Positions 41 through 1,978 of a stretch of 38,867 bases of DNA are shown one piece after another. Where the stretch lies: IMG/VR virus record IMGVR_UViG_2526164634_000034, positions 1-38,867 of that record, one strand, 5' to 3'. Position numbers and translations under genes: made by a program. Origin of the DNA: a virus. Taxonomy: Duplodnaviria > Heunggongvirae > Uroviricota > Caudoviricetes. Below the pieces are notes generated by a model. That model was not told where the DNA came from. It worked only from the letters and a program-made list of their open reading frames with translations, and did not search any database. How positions within the stretch are numbered: the stretch's first letter is position 1; each line of letters starts with the position of its first letter.

Positions 41-1978
41 CTAACCATCATACCAAGCATTGTTAAGAAACTGTGTAACTCTATTTCTTGATAGTTCAAA
101 TAGCTGAGTGCCATTTTGAACTCCAGACAGATCAAACCTGGTATTTTTGGTTAACATATCCCATCCCGTGGCAGCTGGTGATACATATATTTTGGTTGTA
201 GCATTATAAATTATGTTGCCACGGAGACTAATGTCTGAAATAGAACCTGAACCTGCTACTTCCAGTGAAATTCCTTTGTTGGATGCTGGACATAAAATAG
301 TGTTGCCAGAAGCAATAAAACCAGTCATGGAACCCGACGTTAGCATGTCTATACCATCTGAAAGGGTAGAAGCGTTATTATTAGTGACCTTCACGCTTGA
401 CGTGTTTCCAGCGTCACCAGACTTGATGAAATTGGTTGTGTTGCTTGACCGGTTGTAGTCAACATTAAGCCCTGCTATTGTTGACGCTCTCAGGAAATAA
501 CTATCATTAGAACTATTGCCAGAGAATACATTTTCAGAAATATAAACATCTTCAGACATGGCTACATCTGCAAATGACTTACACGTCCCTTTTGCCCTGT
601 TGCGGTTTATTTTGATGTGTTTACTACCACTACCATCATATGTCTTGATGAATAATGGGATTACAACAGCACCGCCAATCAGGTTGTTATCCGTAACTTC
701 AATCTCATCCGCATGGTTTCCTATATGAAATGCTTCTGTTCCATACTGTCCTGCAGACAATGTGTTTTTATACACTTTGCCATATGAGGTATTAGCATGA
801 GTATCTATACCAAAGGTTTGACCAACACCAGATCCTTGAGTGAAGTATCGTGCAGCAAATCCGATAATATTGTTATTGTATATCTTGAAATTTGAAGCAG
901 TGTAACCTTCGTCAGGCTCAATATCTATACCAGCTAATAGCGTATCACCTATGTAGTTTCCATGAATCTCAAACTGCCTAGTATCACTTCCAGCTGCAAT
1001 AGCCATCCTATTGGTTGTAATGATGGTGTTATACCTTACCTTGAAATTTTTCGCGTTATAAACCAGGATGCCATCCCCACGCTGTATCCCTACACCTCCA
1101 ATATTTTTGATATTACAATTTTGAATTAACAGCCCATCCGTCTGTACATCGTAGTTTGCATAATCACCGAACCATATTCCTATGCCGCACTCACCGGATA
1201 GCGTTGAAATTCCAATATCGTGAACATTCACGCCGTCTATAACGATATTGCTGCCACCGTACCCACGAATTCCTCCATCCAGGGTGCCTGTTATATCAAC
1301 ATCAATCACTTTGGCGTTGGAGATGTTAGCCATAAGTATCCCGGATTTCTCTTGCTGAGTTCCGCCATCAAATTGAAAGTTTAATGACCCGCTATGCATC
1401 ACTTTATTACTTTTGTGGTTAATAGGTGAGCGAAGTTTTGAAACGAATCCGACGCCACCAAGTTTAACGCTAGGAGATTCAGAGTCTAATGCAGCGGATA
1501 CAGCAGCATCGTTGAACTCTCCATCAATAGCACCCCATCCGCGAATGTCACCCTCTTCTCTCCACTGCTGAATTTTAATATGCTGATCCATCGATGGGAT
1601 TAGAAGATATCCATTTGGACCCGCTAGCTCTTGTCTTAATTGGTCAGGGTCATACTTCAGCACATTAGGAAAATAGAACTGCTGGGAACCATACGCATCA
1701 TAAACAGCCATAGAATGGCCTTGTACAGTTACGAATTTGGTAATCTGTCCGTTATATACTGGGTAACCAGCAGCGTTAATGATGATTGGTTGCGAAACAG
1801 GAACATGAGAGCCGTCTTCGTTCTCCACATAAACCTGAATCTGGTTTTCAGGGTTTACCGGGTCAGTGTCAATTTTACCGATATAAATTTTGCCATTGGC
1901 TACGGCTTTAAAAGAACGAGCCATAGTGAAGAGTTGCGAAGGCATGCTTACCACAACATTTGCGGTGATATCTGACAT
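41..1978 (-). CDS. Tailspike protein: P22 gp9-like N-terminal head-binding domain plus a distinct beta-helix receptor-binding domain
   Basis: ORF track 41..2026; start moved to the internal ATG ([11 protein letters not shown]...) at 1978. The first ~110 aa match the recalled P22 tailspike head-binding domain; the rest has glycine/asparagine-rich turns typical of parallel beta-helix depolymerases. Confidence 0.85.

Follow-up and report, generated by a model that had tools for sequence, protein, structure and literature searches.

A P22-type head-binding anchor joined to a probable O111 O-antigen receptor module in the tailspike of an Escherichia coli prophage

The tailspikes of the podoviruses P22 (gp9), Sf6 (gp14) and HK620 (gp9) are encoded at the same genome position and built to the same plan, in which an N-terminal head-binding domain serves as virion anchor and is followed by a beta-helix. 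Receptor-binding proteins (RBPs) of an O111 subtype have also been catalogued: Pas et al. 2023 (PMC10408124) grouped 110512_Prophage_RBP, a Lederbergvirus protein (NZ_AP019761.1) whose receptor domain begins at amino acid (aa) 123 (their Table S1), with ECGD1_RBP (AMM43477.1), and linked the two by horizontal transfer. Placing the 110512 receptor domain on the Pseudomonas R2 tailocin resulted in ~4-log killing of O111 strain 10-1120 (PMC11762384), and swapping the C-terminus of tailspike protein 4 (TSP4) of phage CBA120 for nucleotides (nt) 1471-3036 of STP55 TSP4 yielded plaques on Escherichia coli O111 (PMC12737597). In this work we describe the tailspike gene of IMGVR_UViG_2526164634_000034, a 38,867-nt stretch of caudovirus DNA (hereafter the window, meaning the whole of that stretch), and conclude with high confidence that it is the gene 9/gene 14-type tailspike of a P22-like (Lederbergvirus-type) E. 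coli O111 prophage, in which a conserved anchor is joined to an O111 O-antigen module. Both the module swap and the O111 allele are already known, having been catalogued, tested and exploited, and are not peculiar to the window.

Three properties expected of a P22-like tailspike were all found: a PF09008 anchor, a position at the end of the late operon (after the gp7/gp20/gp16 ejection genes and an immI remnant), and a C-terminal right-handed beta-helix. The gene and its parts are as follows.

41..1978, minus strand: tailspike coding sequence, 645 aa with a TAG stop codon at 41-43 (open reading frame (ORF) list and translation).
1640..1978, minus strand: head-binding (virion-anchor) domain, residues 1-113, ending NVLKYDPDQ (Pfam PF09008, PDB matches, nt identity).
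1529..1639, minus strand: linker or adapter, residues 114-150 (LRQEL...GDIRGWGA; junction alignment, BLASTP).
179..1528, minus strand: right-handed parallel beta-helix, receptor-binding and putatively catalytic, residues ~151-600.
44..178, minus strand: C-terminal region, residues 601-645, predicted short strands (AlphaFold2 secondary structure; predicted local distance difference test (pLDDT) score 65-76).

An initial annotation of this locus had proposed that the first ~110 residues follow the P22-type head-binding domain, and this is well borne out. Pfam PF09008 (Head_binding) matches residues 1-113 of 113 (expect value (E) 1.1e-66; 222 bits against a cut-off of 24), and a sequence search of the PDB returned the spikes or isolated head-binding domains of Sf6 (gp14, E 2.4e-64), P22 (1e-50) and HK620, with E values ranging overall from 2e-64 to 1e-45 and with matches covering residues 1-118 only. 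The domain is common to the P22, Sf6 and HK620 spikes (~75-90% aa identity), as is the YDPDQ junction, and from nt 1 to ~340 the gene shows 88-93% nt identity to HK620, Sf6, CUS-3, IME10 and other P22-like phages; this part is also matched in more than 1100 E. coli genomes. The anchor is ~90% identical to those of HK620 and Sf6, and it stays conserved because the tail-hub interface of the virion is common to P22-like phages.

Beyond the anchor this similarity is lost. Over 60-nt segments of the gene, HK620 and Sf6 match at a nt identity of 0.9-1.0 as far as nt ~300, 0.72-0.77 at 301-360 and 0.3-0.5 from 331, a drop that comes directly after NVLKYDPDQ and with which the junction alignment agrees. 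Past this breakpoint BLASTP found no match in HK620 or Sf6, and no alignment extended beyond residue ~118-144. The remainder of the protein had been described as unrelated to the P22 endorhamnosidase, a view with which the background level of nt identity from 331 and the lack of any PDB sequence or profile match to this part are in accord. Sequence homology was likewise not detected to the beta-helices of the P22 and Sf6 endorhamnosidases or of the HK620 endo-N-acetylglucosaminidase, with which structural alignments give 10-12% identity.

P22-like relatives and E. coli prophages that share the anchor carry unrelated C-terminal domains, and conversely, when residues 115-645 were used to look for homologues, the receptor module turned up behind four or more types of N-terminus. 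One is the PF09008 anchor, in prophages of E. coli, Salmonella and Citrobacter (81-100% identity); the others are PF18668 anchors (among them that of gp151 of the Justusliebigvirus ECGD1, whose module has 91% aa identity over 100% of residues 115-645), a PF03906 (T7-fibre) anchor, and the N-termini of proteins of 913-915 aa, in which no anchor was recognised. C-terminal matches in the collection of phages searched included ECGD1 (93.8% nt identity), orf54 of the Kuttervirus STP55, which encodes TSP4 (UPU15645.1; 81.5% nt and 82% aa identity to the module), and, at 89% nt and 82-89% aa identity, an RBP gene that straddles the ends of the permuted record of Escherichia phage ECO111 5-P, for which the host is given as E. 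coli O111; no record in that collection covers 80% or more of the tailspike gene. In ECGD1 gp151 (AMM43477.1), STP55 TSP4 and the ECO111 5-P RBP the same module runs from residue ~114 to the end, whereas the anchors of these lytic relatives are wholly different (a PF18668 TSP1/gp66-type N-terminus or a 1011-aa multi-domain TSP4), their linker is four residues shorter, and their last ~7 residues differ (NNAWYDG in the window, unlike those of ECGD1 and STP55). The three lytic phages carry several spikes each, whereas the P22-like podovirus of the window carries a single one. An anchor found with unrelated C-termini elsewhere, together with a module found on non-P22 anchors, bears out the module swap that had been proposed.

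The closest relatives of the tailspike are copies of the same chimera. In the E. coli O111:H- strains 110512 (WP_136721029.1) and 11128 (WP_000129903.1) the same gene, with the same chimeric plan, lies after injection genes and Mnt. Out of 645 residues the protein differs from that of E2863 at one, from that of 11128 at three and from that of 110512 at four; residues 114-645 are identical in 11128 and E2863 and carry one change relative to 110512 (G553D), while the N-terminal substitutions relative to 110512 and 11128 are S2T, V9I and T80A. Uniform similarity to a single known tailspike, which the initial annotation had set against a swap, is literally present in the prophage proteins of 11128 and E2863; these are the same chimera and not a counter-example. 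The 'tail spike protein' family phrog_19784 (PHROGs v4) also matches the whole chimera end to end (1-645 of 645; 1476 bits). With 4 of 645 residues differing from 110512 (one in the receptor domain) and 91% identity to ECGD1, the protein falls within the O111 subtype of Pas et al. 2023, for which a protein must share 30% identity or more with a subtype representative over 60% coverage or more.

The linker between anchor and beta-helix is semi-conserved across different anchor types in the junction alignment, and the BLASTP alignment to STP55 TSP4 starts at its first residue (114). On non-P22 anchors it shows a four-residue deletion; it is also present on the P22-type tailspike P0052, whose beta-helix differs, and in the solved spike PDB 9vvr, which the profile matches there only. 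To judge from these alignments, the linker is probably the recombination joint. Identity to ECGD1 is 0.5-0.77 across nt 331-560 of the gene and 0.98-1.0 over nt 570-1916 (window 63-1409), the megablast match stopping at nt 1916. This jump at nt ~570 suggests that the receptor module is itself mosaic, that a further breakpoint lies inside it near residue 185, and that its core may lately have been swapped by a temperate podovirus with a virulent myovirus (Justusliebigvirus ECGD1). Horizontal exchange of the module, probably through recombination at or near the linker, links temperate podoviruses with lytic phages and carries O111 specificity along.

Carriers of the gene are confined to one serogroup of E. 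coli. Copies covering at least 80% of the gene occur in 23 of 5426 complete E. coli genomes, and a search of the same genomes with the O111 wzy-wzx segment of strain 11128 identified 60 that carry O111 wzx/wzy; all 23 tailspike carriers are among them, while none of the 5366 others carries the tailspike. Salmonella homologues with a serovar name (86-87% aa identity) come from Alachua, Adelaide or Monschaui, which we take to be all O:35 in the Kauffmann-White scheme. On that assumption the receptor would be the colitose O-antigen common to E. coli O111 and Salmonella O:35. Among the full-length carriers in E. coli, the Salmonella homologues with a serovar name and phage ECO111 5-P, hosts are thus O111 or presumed O:35 throughout, as expected of an O111/O:35-specific receptor-binding subtype. 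E. coli O111 and Salmonella O35 have been described as possessing the same colitose O-antigen (Wang & Reeves 2000, as given in a citing source). Targeting of O111 by the exact sequence of the window is argued by analogy, from the grafts of a domain that differs by one aa and of an 82% homologue, the STP55 TSP4 nt 1471-3036 including the stretch that matches the window. The earlier suggestion that the module may identify the host serotype has thus gained a name, O111, through the 23 of 23 carriers, the presumed O:35 serovars and the published grafts.

The receptor part had also been expected to form a parallel beta-helix, and the structural predictions agree. An AlphaFold2 model built on a 26-sequence alignment (mean pLDDT 76) folds residues ~165-590 into an all-beta solenoid, for the most part at pLDDT 80-97, and the only Pfam match to this part is the generic Beta_helix PF13229 (residues 212-373). 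An NCBIfam search gave no match to the tailspike; a single-sequence search of the PDB matched the anchor only and left the receptor domain unmatched; and a PDB profile search with anchor-less homologues found no solved beta-helix, but only linker or anchor regions of 9vvr, 9d80 and 9d83, with AlgE6 not significant (E = 2.1). Foldseek matches of the full-length model are mostly global matches of low template modelling (TM) score (0.2-0.4) to the P22, Sf6 and HK620 spikes, which are driven by the anchor and the generic fold and are uninformative on chemistry. The receptor domain shows 11-15% identity to the AlgE4 A-module (2pyg), the Klebsiella K1 lyase (7w1c) and the K5 lyase (2x3h); these enzymes act on uronic-acid polymers, and neither family membership by sequence nor a uronic-acid substrate places the domain among the lyases and C5-epimerases. 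The domain is predicted to be the usual pectin-lyase-like beta-helix of phage depolymerases, with no close characterised enzyme, and the label 'depolymerase' is applied here on the strength of the predicted fold.

Three motifs of the beta-helix, RGDGI (300-304), AGIDIEP (349-355) and FGIDTH (389-394), are invariant even in a metagenomic homologue of 26% identity, and we propose the acidic and histidine residues of RGDGI, IDIEP and GIDTH as a candidate active site. The repeating unit of the O111 O-antigen consists of colitose, glucose, galactose and N-acetylglucosamine and is neutral, with no uronic acid. Since a lyase, acting by beta-elimination, needs a uronic acid, a glycoside hydrolase is favoured for the putative cleavage. 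A bolder proposal, which we regard as speculative and on balance doubtful, is that the O111/O:35 module may found a mechanistically and structurally uncharacterised class of O-antigen glycanases, with a colitose-branched neutral polymer as substrate and RGDGI/IDIEP/GIDTH as active site. If true, this site would resemble epimerase and lyase beta-helices more than those of known tailspike hydrolases, and the cleavage chemistry or its location could differ from those of P22, Sf6 and HK620.

Taken as a working model, residues 1-113 would plug a presumably trimeric spike onto the tail hub, while the beta-helix domain would recognise the colitose-branched O-antigen of E. coli O111 and Salmonella O:35. 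O-antigen chains would most likely be bound along the helix and cleaved, which would open the virion's way to the outer membrane. Both the trimer and the enzymatic cleavage are put forward here by analogy with other beta-helix tailspikes.

Several observations weigh against this model. The AlphaFold2 model is of a monomer whose N-terminal domain is poorly predicted (pLDDT 33-60). Fold matches to the receptor domain are generic (9-16% identity), the best of them being an epimerase and lyases and not hydrolases. Furthermore, the published readouts for near-identical or homologous modules are killing, plaques or spots rather than O-antigen cleavage. The beta-helix might accordingly be imagined to bind the O111 O-antigen without depolymerising it, as a pure adhesin or through another modification such as the removal of a substituent, but we consider this improbable. 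The motifs conserved in the 26%-identical homologue are rich in acidic and histidine residues, which fits an active site better than a binding surface; nearly every beta-helix tailspike directed at O-antigen that has been characterised is an enzyme (P22, Sf6, HK620 and the CBA120 TSPs), and known deacetylating spikes use SGNH domains, not beta-helices. A receptor other than the O-antigen, namely a surface polymer such as capsule or colanic acid that co-varies with the O111 lineage, is harder still to credit and in our view very improbable. The association between tailspike and O111 (Fisher's exact p = 8e-48) is partly clonal, many carrier genomes belonging to one group, O111:H8, and its p-value is inflated to that extent; however, carriers also include H2 and H-/NM strains and alleles of 94% and 87% identity, which offset clonality, and all possess O111 wzx/wzy. 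Family phrog_8280 ('tail spike protein with colonic acid degradation activity') aligns with residues 1-535 (window 374-1978; E 2e-108), scoring ~80-120 bits above anchor-only families. Most of this score, however, comes from the N-terminal anchor and linker, and in P0052 the alignment is confined to the linker and first turns. Colanic acid, moreover, is found in almost all E. coli, and as a receptor it would not lead one to expect restriction to a single serogroup; the homologues from another genus come from three serovars that are not known to have more in common than the O:35 antigen. What the phrog_8280 score does hint at is that related beta-helices on P22-type anchors form a larger superfamily, with P0052 as a possible example.

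The remaining alternative concerns the prophage as a whole. The tailspike could be an inert relic of a decaying prophage that informs on a past host and not on present function, a possibility we give more weight than the two above while still thinking it unlikely. An IS21-family element interrupts the early region (31592-33393), so that the prophage may be defective and the spike may no longer reach virions, and the homologous prophage of 11128 carries several IS1203 insertions, including in its scaffold and coat region. Set against this, the tailspike ORF is intact, with a ribosome-binding site and terminator, its residues 114-645 recur unchanged (100% identity) in 11128 and E2863, and a version that differs by 1 aa is functional when grafted (PMC11762384). 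The relic question is also one of prophage viability, not of protein identity, and an O111-directed tailspike on a P22-type anchor is the identification that we retain.

O111 is one of the 'big six' non-O157 serogroups of Shiga-toxin-producing E. coli, and receptor domains specific for it can serve in detection reagents, in engineered reporter phages and for the retargeting of tailocins, uses to which this module has already been put. For annotation of the window, the tailspike names the host serogroup and adds one more clear case in which anchors and receptor domains have been shuffled among temperate and lytic phages.

The surroundings of the gene are those of a P22-like prophage, whose virion module is 96% identical to those of Sf6 and HK620. 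The features referred to in what follows are listed here.

2067-2360, plus strand: Mnt-type repressor, 97 aa, Arc domain and Repressor_Mnt C-terminus (Pfam).
31592-33393, minus strand: IS21-family insertion in the early-left region, with istA (340 aa; rve integrase core and helix-turn-helix) and istB (260 aa; IstB_IS21, E 8e-112).
38677-38867, plus strand: small gene whose stop codon lies exactly at the end of the window.
1986..1989, minus strand: GGAG Shine-Dalgarno, 8-11 nt upstream of the ATG at 1978 (read from the sequence).
1..35, minus strand: terminator-like hairpin with an 11-bp stem (25-35 / 5-15), a 9-nt loop and a T-run at 1-4 (read from the sequence).

Positions 1-7978 of the window are 100% identical to contig AIHD01000047.1 (GCA_000250275.2), on which the P22_gp7, Inj_translocase and Phage_P22_gp16 genes, and then Mnt, precede the spike. 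The Mnt gene sits between the gp16-type gene and the tailspike and represents an immI remnant, because arc and ant are absent beside it. The O111 prophages of 11128 and HCM-22C-2 keep Arc and Ant, and relative to 11128 the prophage around the spike is mosaic, with Mnt only, no Ant, and partly different injection genes.

On the other side of the spike, an Acyl_transf_3 (PF01757) gene of ~300-355 aa follows on the opposite strand in every genome examined (for example at 21946-22854 in L006, 5979-7012 in L007 and 7979-9046 in L014), with the chromosomal dacD-sbmC next after it in most; in E2863 and HCM-22C-2 the acyltransferase gene is split in two. The arrangement is the same as that of gene 14 and oac in Sf6, by analogy with which the product is probably an O-antigen acetylase that modifies the receptor of the spike itself. 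No O-antigen acyltransferase was found within the window by tblastn, the window starting exactly at the end of that gene. An identical 645-aa tailspike, together with the acyltransferase, is present at another chromosomal site in GCA_041317445.1 (ABUCSQ010000005.1), beside an integrase and a formate/nitrite-transporter-family gene rather than dacD. Because both this site and the injection genes of that prophage differ, the sequences indicate that the spike-acyltransferase pair moves between P22-like backbones.

At the far end of the window, the gene at 38677-38867 is putatively equivalent to a helix-turn-helix regulator gene that in 11128 lies before the integrase, and no integrase gene was seen at the 38867 end. 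As the acyltransferase is also absent, the window has the look of a trimmed prophage rather than of an integrated element in full. Searching with window 26000-38867 matched 5344 of 5426 E. coli genomes in many places, because this interval includes the IS21-family element.

The tailspike gene itself is one intact minus-strand ORF, and the coordinates 41-1978 given in the initial annotation, which left the strand unstated, are exact. The mechanical ORF list gives 41..2026 (minus strand), with an in-frame upstream ATG at 2026 that would make a 661-aa ORF. That start was ruled out: the ATG at 1978 (MSDITANV...), preceded by GGAG, is used by all homologues, which begin M(S/T)DIT, and by the RefSeq annotation of identical genes. 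Gene boundaries are the same in E2863, 11128 and 110512, where the product is annotated as 'phage tailspike protein'. G+C content is 0.43 in the tailspike anchor and 0.41 in the receptor part, compared to 0.48 in the rest of the window, and this low value is consistent with a gene that circulates in a wider phage gene pool. After the stop codon, the hairpin reads CTGCGATACCA-N9-TGGTATCGCAG followed by TTTT (window 1-35). It was found by eye and was not reported by a terminator scanner, since the edge of the window truncates the T-run; terminators are annotated at the equivalent position in HK620 and Sf6.
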